From: an uncultured Thermoplasmata archaeon
GTDB taxonomy: Archaea > Thermoplasmatota > Thermoplasmata > RBG-16-68-12
DNA length: 64,000 bases
Direction of reading: 5' to 3'
Assembly (NCBI GenBank): GCA_963768855.1
Contig: CAVYJM010000012.1
Location: 29,451-93,450, forward strand
Below, one piece after another: positions 24,797 to 46,112 of the stretch (positions are counted from its first letter, which is position 1; every line of letters starts with the position of its first letter). A model generated the notes under the pieces. It was given only the letters and a program-made list of their open reading frames with translations, was not told where the DNA came from and made no database searches. The position numbers and the translations under genes are program-made.

Positions 24797-24825
24797 GGAG
24801 TCCAAGCCGCCGTAAACCCGGGCAC

Positions 24826-24832
24826 TTTATAA
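24826..24832 (-). promoter_or_regulatory. TATA box (TTATAAA) of the ATP synthase operon, near-leaderless
   Basis: The only A/T heptamer in the region. Its centre is about 33 nt upstream of ATG 24796, so the predicted leader is only a few nt long. Confidence 0.55.
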
Positions 24833-25158
24833 GCGTTTGGTAGGTGTCCCGGAGTGCGTCGTCGCGGGCCCGTTGAGGCGGGCCGAACCGCCTCCCGCGA
24901 GCTATTTTTATCCAGCTTGGATTATGGAAATCCTGCCGCATCGATGCCTCGGTCGCAAGCCGCGCCGGACTCAACTCCGGGACGAATCCATGGCACGGAG
25001 AGGACGGCGGATGACGGCTCCATGAGCGCTCGCCGAATCGTGTTTGAGGAACGCCGAAATCCGGAGACGCGGCGCGGTCGTAGCGCCGCGCCTTCGCGCT
25101 CGCCCAGCACAAGGTTTAAGTCTAATCCTTCTTTGTCGCAAACACCCGGAGACGCTCC

Positions 25159-25812
25159 ATGGCGGCCCGGGCCCAAGAGGGTCGTGGGATGAGGACCTTT
25201 GTACTGCTCGTAGCGGCAGTGATATTGAGCGTTTCCGCTCTTCCGATGACTGCGACCCCGGCCACGGCAGCCTCAACGATCCCCGAACTCAAACTGACTA
25301 TCCTCGGGGAGCAGAACGGGACCACGTACCAGTTCAGCCCGAGTCGGATCCTCCTGCCGCAGGTCCCGATCCTCATGAACATCACCTTCATCAACAACCA
25401 AACCGCCGGGAGCACGGTCCGGCACACCTTCTCGATCGACAGCTCGGGCGGGAAGACCATCCTCGACTACGACCTCGTCGCCCAGCAGAACGTGACGTTC
25501 GACATTCTGGTCAACTCGATGACGAACATCACGTGGAACGGGACTTCCTTCACGCCGGCCGTCGGGCCGACGGGCGGCATCAAGTTCTACTGCGTCTACC
25601 ACCTCCCGGGCATGGTCGGTGAGCTGACCCTGGCGGGCGCCCCGTCCACGACCGGCACGGAACAGAACGGCGTCTTCCTGCGGGCGTACTGGATCGGGAT
25701 GATCGGGATCGCCGCGATGCTCGTGTGGATCGGCATCAGCTACTACATCATCAAGGCCTCGACTCCCCGCTTCAAGGACAACCGCGAACACCTGAGGAAG
25801 GGTCTTCCGTGA
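25159..25812 (+). CDS. membrane-anchored type-1 (blue) copper protein, sulfocyanin/halocyanin-like cupredoxin
   Basis: Signal peptide (MRTFVLLVAAVILSVSALP; ATG 25189 is an alternative start). Candidate Cu ligands are H in VRHTF and C, H, M in FYCVYHLPGM. C-terminal TM helix YWIGMIGIAAMLVWIGISYYII. Confidence 0.75.
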   Translation: MAARAQEGRGMRTFVLLVAAVILSVSALPMTATPATAASTIPELKLTILGEQNGTTYQFSPSRILLPQVPILMNITFINNQTAGSTVRHTFSIDSSGGKTILDYDLVAQQNVTFDILVNSMTNITWNGTSFTPAVGPTGGIKFYCVYHLPGMVGELTLAGAPSTTGTEQNGVFLRAYWIGMIGIAAMLVWIGISYYIIKASTPRFKDNREHLRKGLP

Positions 25813-26102
25813 CCACGCTGATCCGGAGCGACGCGCCGCGACGGAGCGCCATGGCGGCCGTCGCCATCGCGGGCCTCGTGATCGGCAGCCTCTGGTTCAG
25901 CGCCCTCAGCATCTTCCTCGCCCTCCAGGCCGCCAGCGGGGTCTACCCGAACGACGTGAACGTCTACATGTCCCTCTTCCTCGGCATGGTCTTCGTCTGC
26001 GCGACGGTGGCCGTGGACATCTATCGCAGAGAGTTCATGCCCGACGAGCTCATCCATAAGATCCGGCGGCCCAAGCTGGTCCCGCCGAGGATGTTCCGCT
26101 GA
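25809..26102 (+). CDS. small two-TM membrane protein of the Rieske/cyt b cluster
   Basis: The GTG at 25809 overlaps the upstream stop (GTGA). 97 aa with two hydrophobic helices. No family recognised. Confidence 0.5.
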   Translation: MTTLIRSDAPRRSAMAAVAIAGLVIGSLWFSALSIFLALQAASGVYPNDVNVYMSLFLGMVFVCATVAVDIYRREFMPDELIHKIRRPKLVPPRMFR

Positions 26103-26110
26103 GGTGGTCC

Positions 26111-26893
26111 ATGAGCTGGGAGCAGGAGGAGAAGCAGAAGCGGTTCACCCGGCGCGAGTGGGTGAAGCTCAGCATGACCCTGGGCACGGTCGGTGCCCTG
26201 GGCGGCCTCGGCGGGCTCCTGAACGGGCAGCTCCTGCCGCCCCCGATCCAGCTCAGCGGCGAGGTCCGCGAGGGCCTGTACTACACGAAGTTCCCGACCC
26301 CGCAGTGGTGGAACGACAAGGACGGCACCCCGGTCAAGGCCGCGGACTTCAAGATCTGGGATGGGTCCACGGCGGTCTGGCGCGGGCTCTACCAGAACAA
26401 CCAGCTCCTGCCGGGGACGGGCTTTCCATGCATCGTGATCCGGATTCCCATCGACGCCCCGGAGTTCACCTTCCCGGATGCAGCGACCCTCACCGCCAAC
26501 AGCATCGCGCCGCCGCCCGCGGGATTCGAGTACTATTACGAGGACAAGACGACGGACACCCGCATCGTCGTGTGCTACGACCGTTGCGTCCACCTGTGCT
26601 GCTACCCGGGATGGCACGTCGTGACGAACCCGCCTCCTGGCCGGGACTATGCGGTGCCCCCGCCGACCTACGATGTCTATCACGAGGACCCGATCTACTG
26701 CATCTGCCACGGATCGCAGTACGACCCGCTCCTCCTCACCGTGAACTTCAATCCGCACAGCAACGTGAACTACATCGGGGCCGAGCGGGTCCACGGACCC
26801 GCCCCGCGGGCCCTCGTGGTGATCCCGGTGAAGAACGTGGGCGGCGCCCTGGTCGGGGGCATGCCGAACCCGAACTGGTACGTCTACTGTTGA
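26111..26893 (+). CDS. Rieske [2Fe-2S] protein with twin-arginine signal
   Basis: RFTRREWVKL twin-Arg signal followed by an h-region. Cluster boxes CVHLCC and CICHGSQYD. Confidence 0.85.
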   Translation: MSWEQEEKQKRFTRREWVKLSMTLGTVGALGGLGGLLNGQLLPPPIQLSGEVREGLYYTKFPTPQWWNDKDGTPVKAADFKIWDGSTAVWRGLYQNNQLLPGTGFPCIVIRIPIDAPEFTFPDAATLTANSIAPPPAGFEYYYEDKTTDTRIVVCYDRCVHLCCYPGWHVVTNPPPGRDYAVPPPTYDVYHEDPIYCICHGSQYDPLLLTVNFNPHSNVNYIGAERVHGPAPRALVVIPVKNVGGALVGGMPNPNWYVYC

Positions 26894-26902
26894 GGTGGTG
26901 CG

Positions 26903-27679
26903 ATGGCGTCAGGAGCGTCCGGATCGTTGCGGGAGGACGGCCAGCGCACGGTCTTCGGCTGGTTCAAGACCCGCTTCCCGACCGTGCCGTGGGCCGACCT
27001 GACCCGGAAGGCGCTCGAGACGGACCAGCGGCAGATGCCGCGCAGCCACGCGGAGAAGTACGAGCTCAAGACGATCTGGTACTGGTACCCCCTCTACTGC
27101 CTCGGGGGCATCTCGTTCGTCGCGTTCATCATCCTCACCCTGACGGGGATTATCCTGGGCTTCTTCTACGTCCCGAACGGCGCTTACGTGTACTCGGCGA
27201 CGGGCGGGCTCACGAACGCCGCCTACGACTCGATGACGCGGATCATGACCCAGGTGCCCTTCGGCTACATCGTCCGGGGAATGCACCACTGGGCCGCGCA
27301 CGTGATGATCGCGGCCGTCTTCCTGCACATGTGCCGCGTCTACTTCACGGGCGCGTACAAGAAGCCGAGGGAGCTGAACTGGCTCATCGGCGTCGTCCTT
27401 CTCCTGCTCACAATCCTGTTCGGGTACTCCGGCTACCTGCTCCCGGCCAATGACCTGAGCGAGGGCGCCGCGAACATCGGGATCGAGATGACGCGGGCCT
27501 CCCCGCTCATCGGGGACCAGCTCGCGACGCTCCTCTGGGGCAGCACGAGCACGCTCTCCGGCTACTACATCCTGCGGTGGTACTGGATCCACGTGTTCAT
27601 CTTGCCGTTCGTCGGCGTGGGCCTGATGGTCGTCCACATGGCCCTCGTCTGGATCCAGGGCGTCGCGGAGCCGCACTGA
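26903..27679 (+). CDS. cytochrome b, N-terminal (b6-like) four-helix subunit
   Basis: 258 aa. His pairs HHWAAHVMIAAVFLH and HVFILPFVGVGLMVVH are spaced for two b hemes. YKKPRELNWLIGV motif. Confidence 0.85.
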   Translation: MASGASGSLREDGQRTVFGWFKTRFPTVPWADLTRKALETDQRQMPRSHAEKYELKTIWYWYPLYCLGGISFVAFIILTLTGIILGFFYVPNGAYVYSATGGLTNAAYDSMTRIMTQVPFGYIVRGMHHWAAHVMIAAVFLHMCRVYFTGAYKKPRELNWLIGVVLLLLTILFGYSGYLLPANDLSEGAANIGIEMTRASPLIGDQLATLLWGSTSTLSGYYILRWYWIHVFILPFVGVGLMVVHMALVWIQGVAEPH

Positions 27680-27687
27680 GGTGGGTC

Positions 27688-28998
27688 ATGGAAATCGAGA
27701 AGGTCAAGGAGAAGGTGATGGAGGGCCGGCCGGGCTTCACCCGGCAGTACGGGCCGTCCCGCTCGGACCACCAGCCGGGAATCCCCTTCTTCCCCCAGGA
27801 GATCACCCGCGACGTGGTCGTCTCCTTCCTGCTCATCGCGATCCTCTTCTTCCTGACGGCCGCCGTCGTGCCCGCCCTGGGGCCGCCGCGGGCGGAGAAC
27901 CTCTCCGAGCTCATCGTGCCGGACTGGTACCTCCTGTTCTCCTGGGGCCTCCTGAAGATCGGCGACATCTTCCCGAGCTTCATCCTCGGAGCGGGGACGC
28001 CCCTCGAGACCCAGTTCAACGCGGCGTTCTGGGGGGACATCCTCAGCGGCATCCCGGTCATCTTCCTCCTGGTCCTGCCGTTCCTGGATCGCGGCCGCGA
28101 GGCGCGTCCCGCGAAGGCACCGTTCCGGTCCGCCCTCGGGATCTCCTTCCTGCTCGTCTGGACGTTCTCCGCCTCCCTGTACGCAATCCGCGAGGTCATC
28201 GAGCAGCGGTGGCAGAGCCCGAACGGGGCGACCCTGTTCCCGGACGACGCCCTGAAATGGCTCTTCGTCCTGCCCGCCGTCCTGGCCTTCTTCGCGACCT
28301 ACATCGCGCTGCGGCGCCTCGGGTTCCAGCCGATGCGCAAGTGGCTTGTGCCTGCGACGGTCCTGCCTTTCCTGGTCGTGGCGGCGCAGTCCCTCCTCAT
28401 CCTGTTCGTGCCCGGCTGGCTCGGCCCGGAGGTCATGCCGTACTGGCTTCAGCTCGCGATCGGCCTGCTCATCCTGTGCGCCGCGACCGGGGCGACCGCC
28501 CTTGCGGTCCTCGTCCTCCCCGAATCGACCGCGCGGCGCGTCGTGCATTGGGTCGGCGGGCTGACCCTGCTGGCCTTCGTCGGCTATCTGGTCGGCCTCT
28601 ACTACACGAGCTACCTCGGATACATGTGGGTCGCCACGGTCCTCGACCCGAACTTCAACACGCTCATCCTGCTCCCCGGGTTCGCGGTCGTCACGGCGTG
28701 GTTCGGCCTGCGGCGGCCGTACAGCTCCTACGAGTACCTGCTCAATGAGTGCTACCAGTGCGGCAAGTGCCACACGGTCTGCCCCGTCACGAAGGTGGAG
28801 GACGACGCACTCGGCGGCCTGAACCTCGTCTACAACAGCTTCAAGAAGCAGCACGACGGCGTCCCACTCTGGACGTGCCTCGCGTGCGACGCGTGTAGCG
28901 CGGTGTGCCCGCTCGACATCAAGTACAGCGACTACATCCTCGAGGAACGTTCGAAGGTCCACGCCCGGGCGGCGGCGGACGGAGGTGAACCGAAATGA
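27688..28998 (+). CDS. fusion protein: cytochrome b C-terminal (subunit IV-like) region + additional TM helices + C-terminal 2x[4Fe-4S] ferredoxin domain
   Basis: From ATG 27688. PDWYLLFSWGLLK is the PDWY-type motif of cyt b C-terminal domains. More hydrophobic helices follow, then CYQCGKCHTVCPV ... CLACDACSAVCPLDIK. Confidence 0.7.
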   Translation: MEIEKVKEKVMEGRPGFTRQYGPSRSDHQPGIPFFPQEITRDVVVSFLLIAILFFLTAAVVPALGPPRAENLSELIVPDWYLLFSWGLLKIGDIFPSFILGAGTPLETQFNAAFWGDILSGIPVIFLLVLPFLDRGREARPAKAPFRSALGISFLLVWTFSASLYAIREVIEQRWQSPNGATLFPDDALKWLFVLPAVLAFFATYIALRRLGFQPMRKWLVPATVLPFLVVAAQSLLILFVPGWLGPEVMPYWLQLAIGLLILCAATGATALAVLVLPESTARRVVHWVGGLTLLAFVGYLVGLYYTSYLGYMWVATVLDPNFNTLILLPGFAVVTAWFGLRRPYSSYEYLLNECYQCGKCHTVCPVTKVEDDALGGLNLVYNSFKKQHDGVPLWTCLACDACSAVCPLDIKYSDYILEERSKVHARAAADGGEPK

Positions 28999-29969
28999 TG
29001 ACCACCGACGAGACGGAGTACGGGCCGGGGCGGACGATCCCCCACCCGATGCTCTTCCGCGTGCTGGACAGCGAGGCGGAGGACACGACGGTCCCGGAGA
29101 TCAAGGTCGAGCACAAGTCCGAGTTCGCGTACTACCCGGGCTGCGTCGACTACTACGACATGGAGATGCAGTTCTCCCACGCAAACTACGGGGACACGAA
29201 CCACGGGATCATCTTCGACTCCTCGATCAAGCTCCTGCGCGCGGTCGGGATCGAGCCGATGATCCTGGACCGGTCCTTCATGAAGTGCTGCGGCCACGAC
29301 CAGCTGTGGCAGGGCAAGGTCGACGTCTTCGAGCGGATGCGGGACTACAACACGAAGATCATCCAGATGCTCGGCGTGAAGACCTTCATCACCTCCTGCG
29401 CGGAGGGCTACCGGACGTTCAAGCTCGACTACAAGCTGCCCGGCGTCCGGGTGGTGCACATCACCCAGATCCTCTACGAGCGCGGCCTGCGCGTGCCGCC
29501 CCAGGGGGACAACGCCAAGAAGATCCGTGTGGCCTACCAGGACCCGTGCCGATCCTGCCGCCAGATGCCCGTGGACCCCGTCTACGAGGAGCCGCGGGAA
29601 CTCATCAAACGCGTCGACAACGCGGAGCTCGTCGAGCTCAAGACGTTCCGCGCGGACGCCCAGTGCTGCGGCGTCGCGCAGATGATGTACTGCAACGACA
29701 AGACGAAGGGCCTGACCCGCAAGCGGATGGACGAGGCCGACGAGGTCGGGGCGGACTACCTGCTGACGGCCTGTCCGAAATGCCTCACGCACTTCGGCTG
29801 CCTCCACCACGAGAACAAGTGGAAGCCCGGCGAGGAGCGCCAGAACTACCGGGTGATGGACATCACCCAGTTCCTCGCGGAGCGCCTCCCCGGCGACTAC
29901 CCGTCCGGCAGCAACGTCGACGCGAAGCGCAAGGAGCCGCCGCTTCCGGGCCGGAAGGGAGGCTGGTGA
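28995..29969 (+). CDS. CCG-domain (cysteine-rich) Fe-S protein, HdrB / HdrD C-terminal / GlcF C-terminal-like
   Basis: 324 aa. Two Cys-rich repeats with YPGC...CCGH and DPC..C...CCGV...CPKC. Its start overlaps the upstream stop (ATGA). Confidence 0.75.
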   Translation: MMTTDETEYGPGRTIPHPMLFRVLDSEAEDTTVPEIKVEHKSEFAYYPGCVDYYDMEMQFSHANYGDTNHGIIFDSSIKLLRAVGIEPMILDRSFMKCCGHDQLWQGKVDVFERMRDYNTKIIQMLGVKTFITSCAEGYRTFKLDYKLPGVRVVHITQILYERGLRVPPQGDNAKKIRVAYQDPCRSCRQMPVDPVYEEPRELIKRVDNAELVELKTFRADAQCCGVAQMMYCNDKTKGLTRKRMDEADEVGADYLLTACPKCLTHFGCLHHENKWKPGEERQNYRVMDITQFLAERLPGDYPSGSNVDAKRKEPPLPGRKGGW

Positions 29970-30580
29970 TGGCCGCTCCGGCCGCAACCGCCAACCCACC
30001 CCCCGCGACGCCTCCGCAGCCGGCGCCTCCGTCCAAGCCGGCGACACCCGCCCCCGCGGCGCCCCCGGCTCCTTCCGATCCGCTCGTGGCCTACTACCGT
30101 TCCGTGCGGCAGATGAACTGGGATCTCGCCAAGCAGCGTTTCAAGGACCTCGGCGTCAAGGCGCGGACCCAGGAGTACATCCGCGGCCGCGGCACGACCG
30201 CGATCGTGGACGACGAGGTCTGCATGGGCTGCATGCACTGCTTCGACAACTGCGCCTTCGAGGCGATCAGCGCGCTCGACCGGAAGTTCTCCCTGCCCGA
30301 CTACACGTACACGTCGCGCAAGGCGACGATCATCGTGGAGAACTGCGTCGGGTGCGAGAAATGCGCGATCGTCTGCCCCGTCGACGCGATCAACATGATC
30401 ACGAAGTTCGGCTTCGAGAGCCGCGAGGGCAAGGTCGTCGAGATCGAGAAGCCCGCTCCGCCGAAGCCCCTCGCGCCCCCCGCGCCGCCCGCCGCGCCCC
30501 CGGCGAAGCCCGCGGGCCCCCCGCAGGCCCCGCCCAAGCCCGCCCCGCCGCCGACCCCCGCCCCGAAGGGAGGCGCCTAG
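29969..30580 (+). CDS. 2x[4Fe-4S] ferredoxin-domain protein with Pro/Ala-rich N- and C-terminal tails
   Basis: The ATG at 29969 overlaps the upstream TGA by one base. CMGCMHCFDNC and CVGCEKCAIVCPVDAI. Tails consist of PPPATPPQPAPP and PAPPKPLAPPAPPAAPP. Confidence 0.7.
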   Translation: MAAPAATANPPPATPPQPAPPSKPATPAPAAPPAPSDPLVAYYRSVRQMNWDLAKQRFKDLGVKARTQEYIRGRGTTAIVDDEVCMGCMHCFDNCAFEAISALDRKFSLPDYTYTSRKATIIVENCVGCEKCAIVCPVDAINMITKFGFESREGKVVEIEKPAPPKPLAPPAPPAAPPAKPAGPPQAPPKPAPPPTPAPKGGA

Positions 30581-30916
30581 GTGGCCTCCGCGGCCGAGGG
30601 ATCCGGGACGAGCCCGGTCGTCAAGGCCCGGAAGGCGCCCCGCCTCACGTACAAGCAGGAGATCCAGACGATCCAGAACATGCCGCGGGTCCAGCGCTTC
30701 ATCGTCGTCATGAAGATCGCGGGCGTCTTCCTCGTCGCGATCGGCATTGAGGGGATCGTGACGGCCACGTGGTGGATGGCGGTCCTCTTCATCCCGCTCG
30801 GGGTGGTCGTGTCCATGATGCCCATCAAGATCCGCACGGACCGCTGCATCGCCTGCCGGACGCCTCTGGCGCCGGGGGCGTCGATTTGTCCCGCTTGCGG
30901 AGCTCCTCAGATGTAG
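30581..30916 (+). CDS. small membrane protein with C-terminal zinc-ribbon
   Basis: GTG start directly after the upstream stop. Two TM helices, then CIACRTPLAPGASICPACG. Confidence 0.5.
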   Translation: MASAAEGSGTSPVVKARKAPRLTYKQEIQTIQNMPRVQRFIVVMKIAGVFLVAIGIEGIVTATWWMAVLFIPLGVVVSMMPIKIRTDRCIACRTPLAPGASICPACGAPQM

Positions 30917-31028: not shown

Positions 31029-31541
31029 TTGACCACTGATACGTCGGACGCCATTCATCTCGCCGAACGGTGGAAGGGACTCGACCTCCGGTTGCTGCCG
31101 ATCGACGAGGTGGACGTCCGGATCCTCAGCCGCCTCCGCGAGAACGCACGCCTCTCGAATGTGGAAATCGCCCGCGAGCTGGCGATTTCCGAAGCCACGA
31201 TTCGCCGGCGGATCAAGGCCCTCGAGGAGAAGGGGATCATCCAGGGCTACTCCTGCTACCTGAACTACCAGCTCATCGAGAATCCGGTCAAGGCGTACGT
31301 GAACCTGGCCCTGGAGCCTGGGCAGCGCGAGAGCGTCGTCGCGAAGGTGACCGCCCACCCGCGTGCGGTCGCGGTCTACCGCGTCACGGGGGAGCACGAC
31401 GTGCTGTGCGTCATGTTCTTCATCGACATGTCCGAGCTCCACGAGTTCCTGGACCGGTACCTGCAGATGCCGGGCATCCGCCACGTGGAGACCCAGATCG
31501 TCCTGAGCCCGTACAAGGGCGTCCCCTGGACCGGCGTTTGA
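31029..31541 (+). CDS. Lrp/AsnC-family transcriptional regulator
   Basis: The HTH region DVRILSRLRENARLSNVEIARELAISEATIRRRIKALEEKGII plus a C-terminal RAM/ACT-like domain. The start is uncertain (TTG 31029 or TTG 31092). Confidence 0.8.
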   Translation: MTTDTSDAIHLAERWKGLDLRLLPIDEVDVRILSRLRENARLSNVEIARELAISEATIRRRIKALEEKGIIQGYSCYLNYQLIENPVKAYVNLALEPGQRESVVAKVTAHPRAVAVYRVTGEHDVLCVMFFIDMSELHEFLDRYLQMPGIRHVETQIVLSPYKGVPWTGV

Positions 31542-31544: not shown

Positions 31545-32975
31545 TCACGGCCGGACGAGCGGTTCGAGGACGTGCGCGGAGTCGAACCGCAGCTTGATCT
31601 CCCGCAGGAACCGCATCCGTTCGAGGTAGGCGGGATCCTCATTCCAGAGGTGCGCCAGGCGAGAGACGAGGACCGCTCCGGGGATCTTCTCGACGACCCG
31701 CACCACGCCCTTCGAGAGGTCGTACATGTGCGACCGGTCCTTGGGATGGTCGAAGAAGGGGAACGCGGAGAAGGTGCCGGACGCACGGAGGGTGCCGTAG
31801 AATCCGACCTTCGAGGCGACCTGCTGGCCGAGCGCCTTCAGGCGCGTCGCGAGGTCTCCCGCCGAGGCGGTCGGGAGTCGGACCTCCCCGACGAACAGGC
31901 TCCGCTCCGCGCGCTTCGCTGCCTTGTCGTACTCCGTCGCGGGGACGTCGAACGGGTTCGGGACCTCCGCGGACTTGACCTTGAAGCCGGCCAGCGCCGC
32001 GTCGAGCGCCTTCTCCCGGCCGGGGAGGCCCGAGGCGGTGCCCGCCAGGGCCACTTGGACCGTGAACGGGTCCGGGACGATTCCGGGCCGCAGAACGCCC
32101 GCCGCCACGGCGTCCGTGACGTGGACCCACGGGACGCGCTGTCCCGTCCGGGAGAGCTTGTCGAGTGCCGCGGAGAGCTTCGCCGGGTCATCGAAGGTGT
32201 AGGTGAGCGTCTTGCGGGCGGGAGGCTTCGGCGCCAGCCGCAGGGCCACCTCCACGGGCACGTAGAACTCCGCGGCGAGCGGGAGGGTCGCGTGGAGGAC
32301 GTCGTATCCGGTCCCGTTGTTCGAGGCTGCCTCGAACCCGACCCGCGTCCGGTGGCCGTAGGCGGAGATCGTCCGCAGGGCGTTCACGTAGGCGCCGAAC
32401 TCCCCGTCGAAGGCGGCGAGGGGCGCGTCCCCCCAGACCGCGTCGCCGATTGCGAAGCCGAGCGGGACGGTCGGCACCACCGGAAGGAGGTGCCCCTTCG
32501 CGAGGGCTTCGTCGTACAGGCGCTTCCAAGGGAGGCCGACCTGCGCGATCGCCGCGTGTCCCTTCTCGGTGAGCTCGAGCCCGGTGTACGCAGAGAAGTC
32601 GACCTGCACGCCGCGTTGCTCGGGGACGAGCCAGTCGAACGTCAGGAGGGTGTGCGGCTTCACCGTGAGTCCGATCTCGCGGTCCTTCCCGACGCCGAGC
32701 TGCGTGCGGAAGTAGTTGTAGTCCGCGGCGTCGAGCCCGAGGTTCAGCGTGCTCTCGGAGCCGTTCAGGACCTGGATCAGCTTCCGCAGGTCCGCGTCGT
32801 CCTTGACCTTGACCGTAACCGCGGGCGTGCGCGTCAGGTCGGCGATGATCTCCCGCGGCAGGACCCGGTCGTTCCGAACGAACAGGGCGTGGATGAGCGC
32901 CTCGCGGATCATCTCCGAAAGGGCGGGGATCTCCGTGGCGGCCTCGATGTAGTTCCAGTCGCGCAGGAGTCCCAT
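31545..32975 (-). CDS. FAD-linked-oxidase-like protein (GlcE-like partner subunit, degenerate FAD motif)
   Basis: 476 aa, immediately downstream of and co-oriented with the FAD oxidase gene. The overall PCMH-type layout appears to lack the GGGT-type motif. The assignment is weak. Confidence 0.5.
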   Translation of the reverse strand: MGLLRDWNYIEAATEIPALSEMIREALIHALFVRNDRVLPREIIADLTRTPAVTVKVKDDADLRKLIQVLNGSESTLNLGLDAADYNYFRTQLGVGKDREIGLTVKPHTLLTFDWLVPEQRGVQVDFSAYTGLELTEKGHAAIAQVGLPWKRLYDEALAKGHLLPVVPTVPLGFAIGDAVWGDAPLAAFDGEFGAYVNALRTISAYGHRTRVGFEAASNNGTGYDVLHATLPLAAEFYVPVEVALRLAPKPPARKTLTYTFDDPAKLSAALDKLSRTGQRVPWVHVTDAVAAGVLRPGIVPDPFTVQVALAGTASGLPGREKALDAALAGFKVKSAEVPNPFDVPATEYDKAAKRAERSLFVGEVRLPTASAGDLATRLKALGQQVASKVGFYGTLRASGTFSAFPFFDHPKDRSHMYDLSKGVVRVVEKIPGAVLVSRLAHLWNEDPAYLERMRFLREIKLRFDSAHVLEPLVRP

Positions 32976-32976
32976 C

Positions 32977-34467
32977 CTAATCCGCCTCCTTGCCCCGCTC
33001 GTACGATCGCACGAACTTGTCCTGGGTCGGCTTGATCCTCCGCAAGAACGCGGCGAGGTCGAGACCGATTCGCATCGCCGGCGGCGGGATGGCCCGGATC
33101 CCCGGGAACTGGTACTTCGTCCACACCTCGATCGTCTTCCCCGGGTTCACCTTCCGCTTCGGGTCGAAGACATCCTTGACGTACGCGGTGTAAAGGGCCG
33201 CGCGGCCGTGCATCGTCCGGAGGTTGAAGACCATGAAGAGGCCGAGCCCCATCGGGTGGCCGCCGAGCTCGAAGGCGGCGTCCCCCATCTTCTTCACGTA
33301 TCCGAGGGCCGTGCCGCCGCTGGGCACCGTGTCGTCCATCAGGACGTAGGGCGCGAGGATCACGGAGGTCGCGTCGATGGGGTGCGCCTGGACCGCGCCG
33401 TTGAGCTTCATCTTGCGGATCAGCTCCCGCGCTGTGTCGCAGGCCTCCGGGAGCTTCGCGAGCGGGACCACGTTGTTCGCGACGATCAGGCCGCGGCTCA
33501 TCCGCCGCGCGCTGTACATCCGGAACCGGTGCTCCCAGAGCGCGTCGGGCTCCGCCTGGGGGCGCTTCGTCCCCTGGTTCTTCGGCGCGAGAGCGTCGAG
33601 GGTCTTCTCCTGGTCCGCGACGTCGTCCTTCGGCCCGGCGAGGCACACGAGGACCAGGTCGGCCGGCTCGGGCGTGTCCGTGCGCAGCGCCCTCTCGAAC
33701 ACGAAGTGATCCTTGTCGAGCAGGGAGATGTGGTACGCCTGGATCCCTGAGTCGACGACCGCCTGGAGGAAGGTCGCGGCCGCCTTCAGGGTCGGGAAGG
33801 CGTACGCGACGGGTTTCATCAGATCGGGTTTCGGGTCCAGCCGGAGGGTCGCGGCGGTCAGGACGCCGAGCGTCCCCTCCGCCCCGAAGAAGAGCGGCGT
33901 CAGGTCCGCGAACTGGCCCCCCGCGTCGCGCGCGAGCGCGGTGCGGAGGACCCGGTTGTCCGGCAGGACGACCTCGAGGTCGCGGACGACCTGGCGGAGC
34001 GCTCCGTTGCGGAAGGCGCCGAAGCCGACCACGTCGCTGTTGATCGCGCCTCCCACCGTGCTCGCCATCGCGTTCGTCGGCATGGAGGGGAGGGTGAGTC
34101 CGCGCGCCTCGACGTACTCGGCGACGTCCTGCCAGGTCGCACCCGCCTCGACGGTCACCGTGCGCGCCTGCGGGTCGAAGGCGCGGATCTTGTTCATCTT
34201 GCGGAGGTCGATCAGGACGCCGCCCCGGTTCGGGACCGATCCGCCGTACCAGCCCGTCCCGCCGCCCCGCGGGACGATCGGGAGGCCCGACTCGTCGCTG
34301 AGCTTCACGATCGCCGCGACCTCTTCCGTGGTCTGCGGCAGGACGACGAAGTCCGGGTAGAGGCGCCACTGCAGGAGCGCAATCTTGGGGAGGGAGGCGA
34401 AGTCGTGGCTGTAGACCATCCGGTCAAACTCGGTCCGGGAGACGCGCTCGGGACCGAGGGTGTTCAC
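32977..34467 (-). CDS. FAD-binding oxidoreductase (GlcD / D-lactate dehydrogenase / FAD-linked oxidase family)
   Basis: 496 aa. LPIVPRGGGTGWYGGSVP is the FAD-binding PCMH motif. The C-terminal FAD-oxidase domain is present. Confidence 0.8.
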   Translation of the reverse strand: MNTLGPERVSRTEFDRMVYSHDFASLPKIALLQWRLYPDFVVLPQTTEEVAAIVKLSDESGLPIVPRGGGTGWYGGSVPNRGGVLIDLRKMNKIRAFDPQARTVTVEAGATWQDVAEYVEARGLTLPSMPTNAMASTVGGAINSDVVGFGAFRNGALRQVVRDLEVVLPDNRVLRTALARDAGGQFADLTPLFFGAEGTLGVLTAATLRLDPKPDLMKPVAYAFPTLKAAATFLQAVVDSGIQAYHISLLDKDHFVFERALRTDTPEPADLVLVCLAGPKDDVADQEKTLDALAPKNQGTKRPQAEPDALWEHRFRMYSARRMSRGLIVANNVVPLAKLPEACDTARELIRKMKLNGAVQAHPIDATSVILAPYVLMDDTVPSGGTALGYVKKMGDAAFELGGHPMGLGLFMVFNLRTMHGRAALYTAYVKDVFDPKRKVNPGKTIEVWTKYQFPGIRAIPPPAMRIGLDLAAFLRRIKPTQDKFVRSYERGKEAD

Positions 34468-34590: not shown

Positions 34591-35031
34591 TCAGACGTTG
34601 AGCGCCTTGATCACGAGCTCGCGGAGCCGCTTCGCATCCACCGAGGCATCGTACACGCCGAGGCTCTGCGCGGCGGAGATGACCTGGTTGTCCGGTGCCC
34701 CATCAACCGCACGCGCGATGTCGAGCTTGACCTGGAGGTCCGACTTCCCCACCGTCGAGATCCCGAGGGAGCTCGCGGCGCGGTCCACCTTGACCCGCGG
34801 TTCCTCCTGCGTGAACTGCTGGTTGATCTCCCGTTCGATTTCCATCCGACCGCGGCGGAACTCCCCCATCGCCCGGCCGAACCCGCGGGCGAGCTCGGGC
34901 AGTTTCGACGGACCGAACAGGAAGAGCGCCGCGACGATGACGAGAAGGATGATCCACTCGATGCCCTCGATCTGCGCGGTGAGGTCGATGAAGGAGAACG
35001 CGGACACGCCCTGTACCTCGACGCTGACCAA
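34591..35031 (-). CDS. tatA: twin-arginine translocase subunit TatA/E
   Basis: IILLVIVAALFLFGPSKLPELARGFGRAMGEFRRG is the TatA TM and amphipathic helix signature. The start is uncertain (TTG 35031 or GTG 35007). Confidence 0.8.
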   Translation of the reverse strand: MVSVEVQGVSAFSFIDLTAQIEGIEWIILLVIVAALFLFGPSKLPELARGFGRAMGEFRRGRMEIEREINQQFTQEEPRVKVDRAASSLGISTVGKSDLQVKLDIARAVDGAPDNQVISAAQSLGVYDASVDAKRLRELVIKALNV

Positions 35032-35043
35032 CCGGTTCGAGGA

Positions 35044-35862
35044 TTAAGAGCTTTTCGGACGTGTCGACCGCCGTTTCTGCGCCCGCCACGAGAACGCGTA
35101 GCCCACCACGTACAGGAAAAGCATCGGCAGGGCGACGAAGAGCATCGTGACGCCGCTGCCGTCCGGGGTGATCAGGGCGCCGAAGACGAAGATGCCCGCG
35201 GTGGCGATGCGCCAGTGGCGCTTCCAGAAGTCCGCGGACACGATCCCCAGCGCGGACAGCCCGTACATCAGGACGGGGAGCTGGAACGCCAGGCCGAAGG
35301 CCAGGCTGAAGAGGAGGACGAAGTCGATGAAGTTGTCCCCGTACAGGACGAGGAAATTGGCCCCCATGATGTTCTGCACGGAGAAGAGGAGGTTGAACGT
35401 GAAGGGCAGCACGATGACGAAGCACATCATCACCCCCGCCAGGAACAGGACCACGACGGGCAGGGTGGCCCGCACGAGGAGCCGCTTCTCCGAGGGCCTC
35501 AGCGCGGGGGCGACGAACTGCCCCAGCTCGTACACGATGACCGGCGATCCGATGACGACGGCCAGGAAGAAGGCGACCTTGAACATGACGACGTAAGCGT
35601 CCCAGGGTTGCTGGAAACTGAAGTTCAGCGGGAGCCCGCCGACCCGGTCCGGGACGAGGTAGGTCTTCATCGCCAGGAAGAACCACGTGGCGACGTTCGG
35701 GCTCGTCGGGCCGAGGGCCGGCACGAGCATCGGGATCTGGGTTCCGCCGAGCGACACACTCCCGATGCCCGTCGTGAGGAAGAGGGCAAACAGGATGAGC
35801 ACGGCGATGATGATGACCTTGAGTCGTCGGCGGAGCTCTTCGATGTGGTCCCAGAAGCTCAT
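35044..35862 (-). CDS. tatC: twin-arginine translocase subunit TatC
   Basis: From ATG 35862. MSFWDHIEELRRRL is the canonical TatC N-terminus, followed by six TM helices. Confidence 0.85.
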   Translation of the reverse strand: MSFWDHIEELRRRLKVIIIAVLILFALFLTTGIGSVSLGGTQIPMLVPALGPTSPNVATWFFLAMKTYLVPDRVGGLPLNFSFQQPWDAYVVMFKVAFFLAVVIGSPVIVYELGQFVAPALRPSEKRLLVRATLPVVVLFLAGVMMCFVIVLPFTFNLLFSVQNIMGANFLVLYGDNFIDFVLLFSLAFGLAFQLPVLMYGLSALGIVSADFWKRHWRIATAGIFVFGALITPDGSGVTMLFVALPMLFLYVVGYAFSWRAQKRRSTRPKSS

Positions 35863-35965
35863 CTGCCCCTGGTCCTCGAGGTCCTTCTTCGCCGGGCTCG
35901 CGCTCACGTCCTTCGGCGCGCTCAAGGGGTCGGAGCTTATAGCCGTTTGCGGTGGACGGAGCCCA

Positions 35966-36532
35966 TCAGAAGGAGTACCGGTCCTCGGTCCAGGGGTCCG
36001 CCGTGTTGCTGTAGCCGCGGACCTCCCAGTAGCCCAGCTGGTCCTCTTTGGTGAATGTGATTTGCCGCACCCACTTCGCACTCTTCCAGGCATATCGCTT
36101 AGGCACGAGGAGCCGCACCGGGCCGCCGTGCTCGATGGGGAGCGGGTTCCCGTCCCAGCGGTACGTCATGAGGACGTCGGAATCGTAGAGCACACTCAGC
36201 GGATGTGACGTCGTATAGCCGTCCCCGCAGGTGAAGATCGCGTACTTCGCGGCGGGACGGACGCGGGCCCGCGATGCAAGCTCCCGGACTGTGACGCCAT
36301 CCCACGTGTTGTCGAAGGTCGTCCAGCCTGTGACACAGTGGAAGTCCGAGGTCACAGCCGCACTCGGCAGGGCGAGGAACTCCTCGTAGGTCAGGCGCAG
36401 CGGTGCATCGACCTCACCGTCCACTCGGAAGTCCCAGGTCTTCGGGTCGAACCGCGGGACGACGCCGAGGTCGAGGCGCGGCCACTTCCGGACCGTGTGC
36501 TGCCCCGGCGGGAGCCGCCTCGGATCGGCCAT
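35966..36532 (-). CDS. molybdopterin-binding oxidoreductase domain protein (sulfite-oxidase/YedY-like, short archaeal form)
   Basis: From [20 protein letters not shown] (Moco Cys motif), [16 protein letters not shown]. Confidence 0.75.
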
Positions 36533-36648
36533 CTGGGAAATCCAATGGAACCCCCGAATATAAATGGTTGCAGACTCCCGTCCGGGGTGGTGCACAAGGC
36601 CTGTTTCTAGGGAGAAACGGGGCCGCTCCTTACCGTGCGCGCCAAAGG

Positions 36649-36679: not shown

Positions 36680-37057
36680 ATGGCACTCCTCGACACCTAC
36701 GGACCAATCGTCATTTTCGCCATCGTGGCTATCCTCTTCCCGCTGGGCACCTTCTTCGCGACCCGCCTGTTCCGCCCGACGAACCCGACCCCGCTCAAGG
36801 ACCTCGTGTACGAGTGCGGCGAGGTGCCGGAGGGCGAGGCCCAGATCGAGTTCCACTTCCAGTACTACATGTTCGCCTTGATCTTCCTGGTCTTCGACGT
36901 CGCAGCGATCTTCCTTCTTCTGTGGGCGTTCGCGTGGGGTGGGCTCCTCGATCCGGCCACCCCTCCCATCGCGCGGTATTCCCCGATCATGTTCCTGATC
37001 ATCATGTTCGTCGCCACGCAGTACGCGCTGAAGAAGGAAGAGGTCATCCACATATGA
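36680..37057 (+). CDS. nuoA: NADH-quinone oxidoreductase-like complex subunit A
   Basis: 125 aa. YECGE and [12 protein letters not shown] motifs. Confidence 0.9.
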
Positions 37058-37590
37058 GCACGGCCCCCGCGCGCGCTCCGGAGATGAACGACCGGCCCGT
37101 GGCGGGCATCGAGGTCGAGGTCCTCGCGGACCTGAAGCGGCAGTTCGGCGCCAAGCTGCTCGAGGCCCGCGTCGTGCGGCCGCTCGTCGTCGAGGTGGCG
37201 ATCGACCGGGCGGACCTCGTCGCCGTGTGCCAGCATCTCAAGGAGGCCGCGCACTTCGAGCACCTCGGATGCATCAGCGCGGTGGACTGGAAGGACCACT
37301 ACGAGAGCGTCTACCACCTGGAGAACTACTACAACGGGTGCGTCGTCCAGATCAACGCGCGGATCCCGCACGACGACCCGAAGATCGCCACGGTGTGTCC
37401 CCTCTGGAACGCCGCGAACTACCACGAGCGGGAGGCCTGGGACCTCATGGGCATCGTGTATGTGGGCCACCCGGACCTGAGGCGCATCTTGCTCCCGGAC
37501 GACTTCAAGTTCCACCCGCTGCGAAAGGACTTCCCTCAGGAGGTCGACCGGCAGTACATCAGCCGCCGCAAGCTCAAGGGAGGGAAGTGA
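37054..37590 (+). CDS. nuoC: Nuo-like complex subunit C
   Basis: From ATG 37054 (ATGA overlap with nuoA). [14 protein letters not shown] and HPLRKDFP motifs. No nuoB lies between A and C. Confidence 0.85.
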
Positions 37591-39935: not shown

Positions 39936-39977
39936 TCCTCGTGAGAAAGTCTGCGAGCGCGGTGCTGGAGGGGTACG

Positions 39978-40259
39978 ATGGCGGTTGACTGGGAGGCCGT
40001 CGCCTTCGTCGTCCTGAGTGGGTTCGAGATCCTCTTCTCGATCCTCCTCGTTACGAGCAAGCGGCTGGTCCGTGCGGCTTTCTGGCTCGCGGCGACCCTG
40101 ATCACGATCGGCGGGATCTACCTCCTGTTCCGCGCCGAATTCGTCTTCCTGATCCAAATCCTCGTCTACGCCGGGGCCGTCCCTCTCCTGTTCGCTTTCG
40201 GTATCATGCTCACGCGCCGCAAGATCATGGAGGAGCCGGGTATGGAGGGGAATCAGTGA
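39978..40259 (+). CDS. nuoJ: Nuo-like complex subunit J, N-terminal part (split nuoJ)
   Basis: 93 aa. AEFVFLIQILVYAGAVPLLFAFGIML is the NuoJ core. Confidence 0.8.
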   Translation: MAVDWEAVAFVVLSGFEILFSILLVTSKRLVRAAFWLAATLITIGGIYLLFRAEFVFLIQILVYAGAVPLLFAFGIMLTRRKIMEEPGMEGNQ

Positions 40260-40821: not shown

Positions 40822-40981
40822 GACGGCGGACTTCTCCTATGTCTGGATCATCCTACTGGCACCGTTCGTCTCGTTCTTCCTCTCGGGTCTGATCGGCCGC
40901 CGGACCCCGCAGGGCGGCGGGTACATCGCGGTCGGCGGCATCCTCGTCTCCTTCGTCGTCTCCCTCATCCTGTTCGTCCAG

Positions 40982-42943: not shown

Positions 42944-42944
42944 G

Positions 42945-44561: not shown

Positions 44562-44562
44562 G

Positions 44563-46101: not shown

Positions 46102-46112
46102 GGGGCGAGAAG

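Follow-up and report, generated by a model that had tools for sequence, protein, structure and literature searches.

A Rieske/cytochrome b gene cluster of Thermoplasmata archaea with an attached Fe-S module: a possible cytoplasmic electron-entry arm on complex III

Organization of the Gene Cluster

The locus raises the question of whether a ferredoxin/CCG module encoded among the genes of a Rieske/cytochrome b complex belongs to that complex, and in which direction it would carry electrons. The window, that is, the whole stretch of 64,000 nt that was analysed, derives from an uncultured Thermoplasmata archaeon (RBG-16-68-12; assembly GCA_963768855.1, contig CAVYJM010000012.1, positions 29,451-93,450 of the forward strand). 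The original prediction of eight co-oriented, tightly packed and partly overlapping genes was verified at 25159-30916 on the + strand, and the identities that it proposed are borne out by Pfam or profile matches, motifs, ligands or predicted TM segments:

24824-25128, no strand: divergent intergenic region between an A-type ATPase operon and g1 (sequence inspection)
25159-25812, +: g1, plastocyanin-like type-1 copper protein (ortholog profile, invariant ligands)
25809-26102, +: g2, small 2-TM subunit, DUF7318 (Pfam PF24002, 1.6e-10)
26111-26893, +: g3, divergent Tat-exported Rieske [2Fe-2S] protein (TIGR01416 and motifs)
26903-27679, +: g4, cytochrome b6-type subunit, helices A-D (Pfam Cytochrome_B, 1e-34)
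27688-28998, +: g5, subunit IV with a cytoplasmic HdrC-like 2x[4Fe-4S] domain (Pfam Cytochrom_B_C, Fer4_8/9/10)
28995-29969, +: g6, cytoplasmic protein with two CCG (non-cubane cluster binding) domains, EtfD/HdrB-like (Pfam CCG, 1.3e-22)
29969-30580, +: g7, 2x[4Fe-4S] ferredoxin with Pro/Ala-rich N- and C-terminal tails, "RnfB-like" (Pfam Fer4_21, 3e-11)
30581-30916, +: g8, 2-TM protein (TM 41-59 and 66-84) with a C-terminal CxxC...CxxC zinc ribbon

The spacing between consecutive genes ranges from -4 to +9 nt. In detail, g1/g2 and g5/g6 overlap by 4 nt (the latter as ATGA), g6 and g7 have 1 nt in common (TGATG), g7 and g8 abut directly, and a GAGG/GGAGG-type ribosome-binding motif is located 5' of each gene from g2 to g8. 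Inspection of the sequence of 25159-30916 revealed neither T5 runs inside the cluster nor TATA-like boxes between its genes, and the sole AT-rich octamer lies within the coding sequence of g3. The only TATA-like boxes near the cluster are those of the divergent intergenic region, that is, the AT-rich CTTTATAA at 24825, CTATTTTTAT at 24902 and GGTTTAAGTC at 25113; their role as promoter elements is an inference made without an archaeal promoter model. The start of g1 may be the ATG at 25189 instead of 25159, since the conserved "EGRGMR" region resembles a ribosome-binding site plus start.

The Rieske/Cytochrome b Core

The copper protein g1 has a signal peptide at its N-terminus and is anchored by a C-terminal TM helix (TM segments at residues 14-32 and 179-197). 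Its single-sequence Pfam search gave only a weak match to Copper-bind (0.09), whereas its ortholog profile matched plastocyanins (9e-6) through the copper loop FYCxPHRxAGMVG, with the His/Cys/His/Met ligands H89/C145/H148/M152 invariant among orthologs. Similarly, the Rieske protein g3 found no match in Pfam and PDB sequence searches but matched TIGR01416 (3e-4) over the cluster-binding region, and its twin-arginine motif TRREWVK and boxes CVHLCC and CICHGSQYD (CxHxxC...CxCHxS) are conserved in all lineages. The cupredoxin and Rieske assignments are thus weak by single-sequence search, yet hold up. The copper protein replaces cytochrome c1/f. Its anchor is kept across lineages, whereas the head domain differs in marine groups II and III (MGII and MGIII) and consists of a pentahaem cytochrome c in the counterpart of the fused-type locus L043. 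The position of g2 is identical in Ca. Angelarchaeales, the sister lineage (L042), MGII, MGIII and L043.

The best PDB matches of g4 are cytochromes b6 (1.5e-36), with YCLGG aligned to FYCLGG. The protein contains all four haem-binding His as well as the haem cn/ci Cys of CxGG, and these residues are kept in all orthologs except those of MGII, which read YSLGG and therefore have no haem cn Cys. CxGG was linked to haem cn by Dibrova et al. 2017 (PMC5600118), who also recall a proposal in which ferredoxin is the electron source of this haem. Neither the b6-type haem cn Cys nor the conserved convergent GlcD/GlcE-like pair described below was part of the original prediction.

In g5, the C-terminal part of cytochrome b (helices E-G, with the PDWY Qo motif) is joined to a ferredoxin domain, and the family profile aligns with residues 226-354 of Paracoccus cytochrome b and with HdrC. 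The PDWY motif and the two CxxCxxCxxxCP motifs are invariant. There are 8 TM helices in total, 4-5 of them additional to the subunit IV part; 4 are present in the fused and marine forms, likewise an even number. Lys and Arg are concentrated on the side of the N- and C-termini in the topology prediction, by which the Fe-S domain lies on the cytoplasmic side. The first cluster motif follows the final helix after only about 14 residues.

Conservation and Natural Fusions

All of g1-g8 are syntenic in every sufficiently long locus among 38 loci of Ca. Angelarchaeales, and the full order is kept in the 23 complete related loci, with no internal gene missing in any. The same order is found in the sister lineage, MGII and MGIII, an arrangement far above chance expectation. 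The ferredoxin g7, which matched the RnfB and NuoI models only under their cut-offs, is syntenic everywhere, its place being taken by a flavodoxin+Fer4 fusion in MGII and by a polyferredoxin in MGIII. In the case of g8, the zinc-ribbon Pfam matches were under cut-off; the TM core is kept in the MGII/III homologs and the zinc ribbon is absent there. Within the cluster, conservation is highest for g6 (76-96% identity in related loci).

In other archaea, Cytochrom_B_C, Fer4 and two CCG domains are joined in one protein of 543-932 aa, the gene for which immediately follows a cytochrome b gene in each case, and g5+g6 of the window align colinearly with the fusion of L043. This is an indication that the Fe-S module belongs to the complex. 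It could still be argued that an ordinary complex III operon merely lies beside unrelated Fe-S genes: Rieske protein, cytochrome b6, subunit IV and copper protein alone would make a working complex, and biochemical data are absent. The Fer4 domain, however, is covalently joined to subunit IV in all lineages examined, and the CCG domains are too in several; the order is conserved across orders and classes of Thermoplasmata's phylum, Thermoplasmatota; and the start and stop codons overlap, with g6 being the best conserved gene. We regard the absence of any functional link as highly improbable, and in effect refuted by the fusions. The hybrid of Rieske/cytochrome b and ferredoxin/CCG modules that had been proposed is therefore supported by synteny, fusions and cytoplasmic topology.

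Function of the Fe-S Module

For the role of the module, our best explanation, to which we give an even chance, is a single membrane complex whose Fe-S arm is a cytoplasmic electron-entry port to quinone. The products of g1-g8 would assemble around a b6-type Rieske/cytochrome b quinol oxidase, with the membrane-anchored plastocyanin-like copper protein as high-potential acceptor subunit. Permanently attached on the n-side (cytoplasmic) would be an arm made of the two cubane [4Fe-4S] clusters at the end of the extended subunit IV, the two-CCG protein with its non-cubane clusters and the dicluster ferredoxin. The CCG clusters would receive electrons from reduced flavoproteins or ferredoxin of the cytoplasm and hand them on via the two [4Fe-4S] clusters to haem bH/cn and to quinone at Qi; quinol would be oxidised at Qo, with electrons leaving through the Rieske and copper proteins to a terminal oxidase. 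Candidate donors would be ETF and, in this lineage, also the GlcD/GlcE-like 2-hydroxyacid dehydrogenase encoded next to the cluster. What is observed comprises the gene content, cofactor motifs, topology, synteny, the fused forms and the fact that g6 is more closely related to EtfD than to HdrB. Subunit assembly and an Fe-S chain within electron-transfer distance of haem bH/cn are inferred, with no experiment or multimer model behind them; donor identity is likewise inferred, and the direction of electron flow is deduced from homology and physiology only.

The entry port is suggested by analogy with EtfD/EMO, GlcF, GlpC and LutA. In EMO, the docking site of the ETF flavin is the non-cubane clusters. 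In EtfD, electrons travel from ETF to menaquinone along a wire of two CCG clusters, a pair of [4Fe-4S] clusters and haem b (PMC13083937). The carrier organisms have been described as aerobic heterotrophs degrading amino acids or fatty acids (PMC9038741, PMC6336850).

The AF2 model of g6 (pLDDT 81) has M. smegmatis EtfD as its best fold match (9OJN, 2.4e-13), followed by LutA and HdrB, and the family profile scored 4.5e-28 against 9ojn_A and 3e-11 against HdrB. The protein is thus nearer to the mycobacterial EtfD (ETF:menaquinone oxidoreductase) than to the catalytic HdrB. Of the two CCG motifs, the proximal one with its five Cys shows no variation and the distal one differs among lineages, in agreement with the pattern reported for EMO-type proteins. 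A difference from EtfD is that an invariant Glu of the g6 family stands where a His completes the non-catalytic cluster D2, which speaks against the entry port, as do the absence of the haem cn Cys in MGII and of ETF genes from the 64,000-nt window.

The same module is used in the opposite direction by HdrDE and DsrMK, whose architecture of dihaem b, 2x[4Fe-4S] and 2xCCG is shared here. On this model, the complex would be a quinol-driven cytoplasmic reductase, in which electrons from quinol on the outer side run through the b haems and [4Fe-4S] clusters to a catalytic CCG protein that reduces a disulfide or trisulfide carrier. Both fold and sequence matches of g6 to HdrB are significant, and in NCBIfam g6 is best matched by the C-terminal portion of thiol:fumarate reductase TfrB (1e-27), in which the CCG domain has a catalytic role. 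The fused protein of L043 has a complete distal CCG motif and is followed by HdrC-, HdrB-, HdrA- and MvhD-like genes, a full set that fits thiol/disulfide chemistry. Both the TfrB match and the L043 neighborhood also count against the entry port. Nevertheless, we consider the reductase unlikely. The g6 family is far nearer to the non-catalytic EtfD than to HdrB, Angelarchaeales, MGII and MGIII have a degenerate distal motif, and the descriptions of the carriers are of aerobic heterotrophs, in which no heterodisulfide is known. Furthermore, the cluster apparently encodes the carriers' only complex III, so that the Q cycle would be lost if one electron in every two went to a disulfide. Of the two roles originally offered for the CCG module, electron transfer is therefore favoured, and thiol/disulfide chemistry becomes the less likely one because the module is nearer to EtfD/EMO than to heterodisulfide reductase.

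Flanking Genes and Candidate Donors

In line with an entry port, the flavoproteins that adjoin the module differ among lineages: MGII has the flavodoxin-Fer4 protein, L043 and L048 have HdrA-like FAD proteins with MvhD/FlpD, and GlcD/GlcE-like proteins occur in the lineage of the window, where the following genes were found 3' of g8:

31029-31541, +: Lrp/AsnC-family regulator (Pfam AsnC_trans_reg and HTH_24), 112 nt past g8
31545-32975, -: GlcE-like FAD-binding protein (weak FAD_binding_4), convergent with the cluster
32977-34467, -: GlcD-like FAD-linked oxidase (FAD_binding_4, 1e-39, and FAD-oxidase_C)
34591-35031, -: TatA (Pfam TatA_B_E, 3e-12), 5' of GlcD on the same strand
35044-36093, -: TatC (Pfam TatC, 3e-48), 5' of GlcD on the same strand

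The Lrp gene follows g8 in 7 related loci and in one distant fused-type locus; it possibly encodes a regulator of the cluster, its membership being uncertain. TatA and TatC are the export machinery required by the Rieske protein, and the Tat neighborhood is repeated in the sister lineage. The GlcD-like protein matched TIGR00387 glcD under its cut-off (6e-52), and the homologs found for the GlcE-like protein are all from the same lineage.

The GlcE-like and GlcD-like proteins are candidates, by inference, for cytoplasmic donor subunits. A narrower version of the electron-entry explanation makes the arm their dedicated "split GlcF", so that a D-lactate/glycolate-type 2-hydroxyacid dehydrogenase would dock on complex III in Angelarchaeales. 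The pair lies 3' of g8 and convergent in 28 of the 28 related loci that reach far enough (mostly directly after g8 or the Lrp gene, farther in L029 and L038) and occurs also in the sister lineage, with no GlcF gene nearby. GlcD-family enzymes are usually paired with such a subunit, for instance in the fusion YdiJ, which matches the GlcD-like protein; the C-terminus of g5 together with g6 reproduces the architecture of GlcF/GlpC, and the GlpC and GlcF models match the Fer4 domain. However, MGII, MGIII and the fused-type loci retain the arm without adjacent GlcD/GlcE. Being encoded on opposite strands, the two sets of genes are not co-transcribed. The adjacency may also reflect shared descent only, because it is confined to Angelarchaeales and the sister lineage, where general synteny is conserved, the ATPase and Tat neighbors being as conserved in Angelarchaeales as GlcD/GlcE. 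A dedicated split GlcF remains possible but doubtful.

Significance of the Cluster

As had been anticipated, this composition matches none of the characterised complexes. The cluster has never been studied biochemically and is mentioned in the literature only in passing: Diamond et al. 2022 (PMC9038741) remarked on the hdrD-like and rnfB-like neighbors in one sentence, and Tully 2019 (PMC6336850) on the orphan "RnfB" of MGII. Its conservation extends from Thermoplasmata of soil to marine group II/III archaea, which are abundant. The Fe-S module attached to it is of the kind that elsewhere carries flavoprotein electrons to quinone; with entry at Qi and quinol oxidation at Qo, the electron-entry complex would therefore act both as a dehydrogenase:quinone reductase and as a quinol:cupredoxin reductase.

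Organization of the Gene Cluster

The G+C content of the window is 64–71%, and eight ORFs sharing one orientation, most of them with the strong GC3 bias typical of real genes, were located at 25159–30916. They encode a copper protein (g1), a DUF7318 protein with 2 TM segments (g2), a Rieske protein (g3), a cytochrome b6 (g4), a subunit IV with a Fer4 domain (g5), a protein with two CCG domains according to Pfam (g6), a 2x[4Fe-4S] ferredoxin with Pro/Ala-rich tails (g7), and a zinc-ribbon protein with two TM helices (g8). The original prediction of a cupredoxin, Rieske, and cytochrome b cluster extended by an Fe-S module was confirmed in full concerning ORFs, domains, and motifs, the only small caveat being that g1 may start at 25189. 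No literature on DUF7318 was found.

The intergenic spacing within the cluster ranges from -4 to +9 nt. In detail, g1/g2 and g5/g6 overlap by 4 nt, g6 and g7 share one base (TGATG), and g7 and g8 abut. Each gene from g2 to g8 is preceded by a ribosome-binding motif of the GAGG/GGAGG type. Runs of T5 are absent between 25200 and 31000, where the sole AT-rich octamer is located within the coding sequence of g3, and the only TATA-like boxes near the cluster are found in the divergent intergenic region 5' of g1. As a prediction from the sequence, g1–g8 fit a single transcription unit.

Identity of the Encoded Subunits

The product of g4 matches the N-terminal part of cytochrome b in Pfam (1e-34), and its best solved relatives are the cytochromes b6 of cyanobacteria and chloroplasts (1.5e-36). 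Its four haem His residues align with H86/H100/H187/H202 of b6 and are invariant in 11 orthologs. The YCLGG motif aligns with FYCLGG of b6, in which the Cys binds haem cn/ci covalently; the Cys of this CxGG motif is kept in the orthologs except that of a marine group II locus (L044), and haem attachment in the window is inferred.

The family profile of g5 aligns with residues 226–354 of Paracoccus cytochrome b, with PDWY, the invariant Qo motif of the ef loop, at the place of PEWY. Eight TM segments are found in g5, with positive charge clustered on the side of both termini, and its C-terminal domain is almost invariant, carries two CxxCxxCxxxCP motifs, and matches HdrC. Positions 1–42 of g5 also include many invariant residues. 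The N-terminal cytoplasmic segments of g4 (QRQMPRSHAEKYELKTIWYWYP; 26903–27100) and g5 (27688–27810) are far more conserved than the TM parts. These n-side termini may form a docking surface for the putative Fe-S arm, that is, the 2x[4Fe-4S] domain of g5 together with g6 and g7.

For g3, neither a Pfam match nor a PDB sequence match (phmmer) was obtained, and the only family match is a weak one to TIGR01416 (3e-4). However, the twin-arginine signal and the CxHxxC/CxCHxS boxes (CVHLCC and CICHGS) are kept in every lineage examined. Since single-sequence searches gave nothing, the Rieske assignment rests on these motifs and the one weak NCBIfam match. Pfam scores g1 as a cupredoxin at only 0.09; the profile of its orthologs matches plastocyanins (9e-6) via the copper loop FYCxPHRxAGMVG, and His89, Cys145, His148, and Met152 are invariant.

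Distribution and Synteny

More than 200 homologs of the g5 fusion were found in Thermoplasmata metagenome-assembled genomes. With each species represented by a single genome, the locus scan yielded 38 loci. Their carriers, RBG and EA genomes among them, are all Thermoplasmata of soil, aquifers, or sediment and fall within GTDB order RBG-16-68-12 (Ca. Angelarchaeales). All eight genes are present in unchanged order in every sufficiently long locus (23 complete sets with no internal loss). The CCG protein g6 is the most conserved of the cluster (76–96% identity), and the copper protein g1 shows 34–53% over comparable spans.

Further groups were reached through more distant g6 homologs. A sister lineage (L042) carries the same eight genes, and the same route gave loci of marine group III (MGIII; L039–L041 and L046) and marine group II (MGII; L044 and L045). 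In both marine groups the order is an anchored head-domain protein, DUF7318, a Rieske-like protein, cytochrome b, subunit IV with Fer4, the CCG protein, an Fe-S protein, and a small membrane protein. Their subunit IV has four helices, and the Fe-S protein at the g7 position in MGII is a fusion of flavodoxin and 2x[4Fe-4S]. The cluster of MGII g6 homologs holds 991 member sequences, one of which is present on 233 contigs. Regarding g1, the C-terminal anchor helix is conserved but the head domain varies, being a cupredoxin in the window, a pentahaem cytochrome c in a distant metagenomic locus (L043), and a domain without assignment in MGII and MGIII. A constant anchor with a variable head is the behaviour of cytochrome c1/f-type subunits.

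The MGII version has peculiarities of its own. In the cytochrome b gene (6922–7875; L044/L045), YSLGG replaces YCLGG, so that the haem cn Cys, present in every other lineage, is absent. The first CCG motif is EtfD-like (C..C[S]..CxxC), and a flavodoxin domain is part of the ferredoxin subunit. On account of these three features, different wiring on the n side is possible in the MGII complex.

Evidence for the Fe-S Module as Part of the Complex

A profile search for fused forms over 1.8 billion representatives revealed five single polypeptides (P0297, P0303, P0306, P0307, and P0310) that combine Cytochrom_B_C, Fer4, and two CCG domains. Three more (P0288, P0304, and P0308) gave the same profile match and Fer4 with CCG, although Pfam Cytochrom_B_C was not called at the threshold used. 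A cytochrome b gene directly precedes each fused protein whose context is readable. By alignment, g5 and g6 of the window are colinear with the fusion of L043. No cultured haloarchaeon with a fused subunit IV emerged from the clusters consulted, whose entries were MAG-derived or carried no name.

The number of helices before Fer4 is always even, i.e., eight in g5 and four in the marine and fused forms, with ~14 residues between the last helix and the first cluster motif. From this count and spacing it is inferred that the g5 clusters must lie on the cytoplasmic face of the membrane, adjoining the n side of cytochrome b.

In two unrelated metagenomic lineages (L043, 4729–13487, and L048, 2541–12074), the fused subunit IV-Fer4-CCG gene is followed by genes for HdrA-like FAD/Fe-S proteins and an MvhD/FlpD-like protein. 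In the former locus, HdrC- and HdrB-like proteins are encoded by separate genes as well, and the copper protein is replaced by multihaem cytochromes c. On gene content, these loci resemble a Rieske/cytochrome b complex to which an Hdr-type module for flavin-based bifurcation is coupled.

The Type of the CCG Protein

A single-sequence search with g6 gave a match to HdrB (5e-6); among the NCBIfam models, g6 scores best against that of TfrB, in its CCG part. The AlphaFold model of g6 (pLDDT 81) has its best fold match in EtfD of Mycobacterium smegmatis (9OJN, 2025 cryo-EM; 2.4e-13), followed by LutA and then HdrB. Similarly, the family profile scores 4.5e-28 against EtfD versus 3e-11 against HdrB.

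The proximal five-Cys motif (C185, C224, C225, C260, and C263) is invariant and aligns with C637/C672/C673/C709/C712 of EtfD. The distal (first) motif differs by lineage, being C..CC..C-A-E-G in Angelarchaeales and MGIII and C..CS..CxxC in MGII; the last Cys is missing in the former two (C135-A-E-G) and the second Cys of CC in the latter. Both CX31-39CCX35-36CXXC motifs are complete only in L043, and g6 does not have the two complete CCG motifs that would mark a catalytic HdrD/HdrB. The distal site of EtfD reads C..CT..CxxC as against C..CC..C in g6, and the cluster-completing His583 of EtfD corresponds to an invariant Glu in the g6 family.

In EtfD, electrons pass from two CCG clusters to two cubane clusters, haem b, and menaquinone; the enzyme feeds the quinone pool of an aerobe from ETF, and its CCG clusters are non-catalytic (PMC13083937). 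In EMO, the non-cubane clusters are the docking site of the ETF flavin, and the distal cluster varies across the family. Judged by its motifs, the g6 family repeats this pattern of the EMO family, with a constant proximal and a variable distal site.

Genomic Neighborhood and Flavoprotein Partners

The A-type ATPase operon lies upstream of the cluster in divergent orientation. Downstream, an Lrp/AsnC regulator is followed by tatC, tatA, GlcD-like, and GlcE-like genes on the opposite strand, and beyond them by a molybdoenzyme-like ORF and the nuo operon. The features are the following:

12274–12837, + strand, Ras/Roc-family small GTPase (Pfam Ras, 3e-30)
25159–30916, + strand, the eight-gene cluster g1–g8
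31029–31541, + strand, Lrp/AsnC regulator, between g8 and the GlcE-like gene
31545–34467, - strand, GlcD/GlcE-like pair
34591–36595 region, - strand, tatC and tatA, directly upstream of the GlcD/GlcE-like genes
36680–47702, + strand, nuo (complex I) operon with nuoA, C, D, H, J (two ORFs), K, L, M, M, and N
47761–48888, + strand, DinB/ImpB-type DNA polymerase, 3' of the nuo operon
50290–51516, + strand, ammonium transporter (Amt), 3' of the nuo operon
51740–53134, - strand, malic enzyme, 3' of the nuo operon

In each of the 28 related loci with enough sequence 3' of the cluster, the convergent GlcD/GlcE-like pair is located there (5.5 kb off in one). The sister lineage L042 has it too, and it is absent beside the MGII and MGIII clusters. 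The GlcD-like protein reaches 177 bits where the family cut-off is 568, NCBIfam gives no match for the GlcE-like protein, and no GlcF is encoded in their operon. Three co-encoded, above-threshold GlcDEF subunits are therefore not present; the GlcF-like parts are split, lie on the opposite strand, and are joined to subunit IV. When GlcE-like homologs were searched for relatives adjacent to GlcF, only Angelarchaeales-type sequences were among the matches listed. A link between this pair and the Fe-S arm is an inference of moderate probability, since synteny within Angelarchaeales is maintained in general as well.

Elsewhere, the flavoproteins beside the module are HdrA-like proteins with MvhD/FlpD (L043 and L048) or flavodoxin-Fer4 (MGII). 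We read the module as a putative conserved port with exchangeable flavoprotein partners. There are no ETF genes in the window; FixABCX has been reported elsewhere in Angelarchaeales-1.

The Lrp/AsnC gene occupies the position between g8 and GlcE in some Angelarchaeales loci only (L001, L002, L003, L020, L024, L033, and L034), and one also follows the cluster in a very distant locus of the fused type (the context of P0288). A 209-aa ORF (35966–36595, - strand) overlapping the tatC start resembles sulfite oxidase/MsrP by eye, without a domain scan. In L042, an Oxidored_molyb gene is located beside TatC and TatA, and hence the tat/molybdoenzyme neighborhood appears to be conserved with the cluster. 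Next to the small GTPase, an ORF of similar size and composition (12917–13468, + strand; no domain scan) is possibly a second one.

The nuo operon lacks nuoEFG, and neither nuoB (expected between A and C) nor nuoI (expected between H and J) is at its usual place. The presence of two nuoM genes agrees with Diamond et al. (2022; PMC9038741). Amt is also among the Angelarchaeales functions in that study; amo/pmo genes were not seen in the scanned parts of the window. Given the missing nuoI and the presence of NuoI/NdhI among the top matches of g7, it was considered whether g7 is a displaced NuoI. This was rejected, as g7 scores 34–38 bits against cut-offs of 113–124 and its position remains with the cytochrome b cluster in all lineages, where it is replaced by flavodoxin-Fer4 proteins or polyferredoxins.

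Relation to Known Complexes

The cluster shares with b6f and the b6-type complexes of Firmicutes/Heliobacteria the split cytochrome b (four-helix b6 and subunit IV), the four His ligands, the Cys of CxGG, a PEWY-type Qo motif (PDWY in g5), a Tat-exported Rieske protein, and plastocyanin-type acceptor chemistry. On the contrary, its subunit IV has eight (or four) helices and a cytoplasmic 2x[4Fe-4S] C-terminus, and g5 does not meet the b6-type form of three helices with the C-terminus on the p side. The cluster further encodes the CCG protein, the ferredoxin, and two additional small membrane proteins, and a C-terminal helix anchors the copper protein in the position of cytochrome f/c1, which is itself absent from the cluster. 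PetG/L/M/N genes were not seen in the cluster either. Ferredoxin or FNR has long been proposed to feed electrons into the n-side haem cn of b6f (PMC5600118).

The C-terminus of g5 together with g6 has the composition of EtfD/EMO, i.e., two cubane [4Fe-4S] clusters and two CCG domains, attached in both cases to a haem b membrane domain near a quinone site and found in aerobes. The membrane part of EtfD/EMO is a NarI-like mono- to tri-haem domain of the same polypeptide, whereas here a cytochrome b of the bc/b6f type, with Rieske protein and Qo site, takes its place; no NarI-like domain is present in the same polypeptide, and the haems are on the separate g4. The architecture of GlcF/GlpC (a Fer4 dicluster and two CCG domains) also equals the g5 C-terminus plus g6. 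In GlcDEF, GlpABC, and LutABC the Fe-S/CCG subunit is peripheral and encoded with its dehydrogenase, but in the cluster this part is split, fused to a complex III subunit IV, and on the strand opposite to GlcD/GlcE.

Rieske/cytochrome b cores with co-encoded electron-transfer subunits are a concept shared with the R/b complexes of Methanoperedens with pentahaem cytochromes. In anammox R/b-2 and R/b-3 such a core is extended by an NAD(P) oxidoreductase subunit. Neither the anammox nor the Methanoperedens complexes are known to include a module with CCG/non-cubane clusters or a subunit IV fused to a ferredoxin domain. The "unusual Rieske/cytochrome b complex" of Methanoperedens was rejected as the same system, since there is no HdrD-like gene in that cluster as described. 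An Rnf assignment is not met, with g7 at 34.6 bits against the TIGR01944 cut-off of 68.7 and no rnfACDEG among the scanned ORFs of the window; the same absence has been reported for MGII (Tully 2019; PMC6336850).

Direction of Electron Flow

The best-supported model, which we hold with no more than moderate confidence, is that the Fe-S arm is an n-side entry port for electrons, with donors and electron transfer being inferred. A cytoplasmic flavoprotein or ferredoxin would reduce the CCG clusters, from which electrons would pass to the two [4Fe-4S] clusters and haem bH/cn and reduce quinone at Qi. Ordinary oxidation of quinol at Qo would then supply the Rieske protein and the anchored copper protein. 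The entry port is favored because g6 is closer to EtfD/EMO, GlcF, and LutA than to catalytic Hdr, because its distal site is degenerate, and because the carriers are reported as aerobic heterotrophs, both Angelarchaeales (Diamond et al. 2022; PMC9038741) and MGII (Tully 2019; PMC6336850).

Flow in the opposite direction, in which quinol would drive the reduction of a cytoplasmic disulfide as in HdrDE/DsrMK, is not excluded; disulfide reduction here is inferred. A dihaem cytochrome b with cytoplasmic 2x[4Fe-4S] and two CCG motifs is common to those enzymes and the cluster, but sequence similarity favors the non-catalytic type, and the carriers are aerobes. The cytochrome b of HdrDE/DsrMK belongs to the NarI/HdrE family, and its CCG site is catalytic for disulfide reduction. 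Those enzymes are not known to have a Rieske partner or a bifurcating Qo site, and the carriers of the cluster are not known methanogens.

The Hdr-type neighbors in L043 and L048 keep alive both disulfide reduction and a second opposite-direction reading, bifurcation at Qo. The arm would then be the exit of an electron-bifurcating Rieske/cytochrome b enzyme that makes a low-potential reductant from quinol without consuming proton-motive force. One electron of the Qo quinol would run downhill via the Rieske and copper proteins to oxygen, and the other through haems bL/bH/cn and the Fe-S chain to a low-potential cytoplasmic acceptor, i.e., ferredoxin via g7, a flavoprotein, or a disulfide. In the lineages with HdrA-like partners (L043 and L048), coupling to a second, flavin-based bifurcation would be possible. 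We consider this exit improbable.

Previous Reports and Significance

A complex III-like locus beside ATPase and complex I was described in 30 Angelarchaeales genomes (Diamond et al. 2022; PMC9038741). In MGII, cytochrome b and Rieske were noted in the absence of a canonical bc1, together with an orphan RnfB; their complex III was described only as "MGII specific" and RnfB was left unexplained (Tully 2019; PMC6336850). Beyond these two studies, no literature on this locus was found. In a recent survey of CCG modules, all membrane partners listed are NarI-like haem b domains, and Rieske/cytochrome b complexes do not appear; a survey of archaeal fusions and fissions does not mention cytochrome b, its passage on heterodisulfide reductase covering fusions of Hdr subunits. 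As far as found, previous work has not described the subunit IV fusion or the fully fused forms, the occurrence of the haem cn Cys in such a complex, the EtfD kinship, the spread across Poseidoniia, or the GlcD/GlcE association. The cluster belongs with Rieske/cytochrome b complexes and CCG-module quinone reductases, and was flagged earlier but is still uncharacterised.

In chloroplast b6f, electron exchange at the n side, as a step of ferredoxin-dependent cyclic flow, has been a matter of debate for two decades. If the arm exchanges electrons with haem bH/cn, it would be a natural, genetically hard-wired case of cytoplasmic Fe-S/flavin traffic to the n side of a b6-type complex, and a bc-type cytochrome b would join the membrane partners of non-cubane-cluster (CCG) modules. 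The module is not confined to one soil lineage and appears to be the complex III of marine groups II and III. Once known, the donor of the port, whether ETF, 2-hydroxyacids, or ferredoxin, would alter the models of the respiratory chain and the assumed energy yields of the abundant marine heterotrophs of MGII/III and of the CuMMO-bearing Angelarchaeales.
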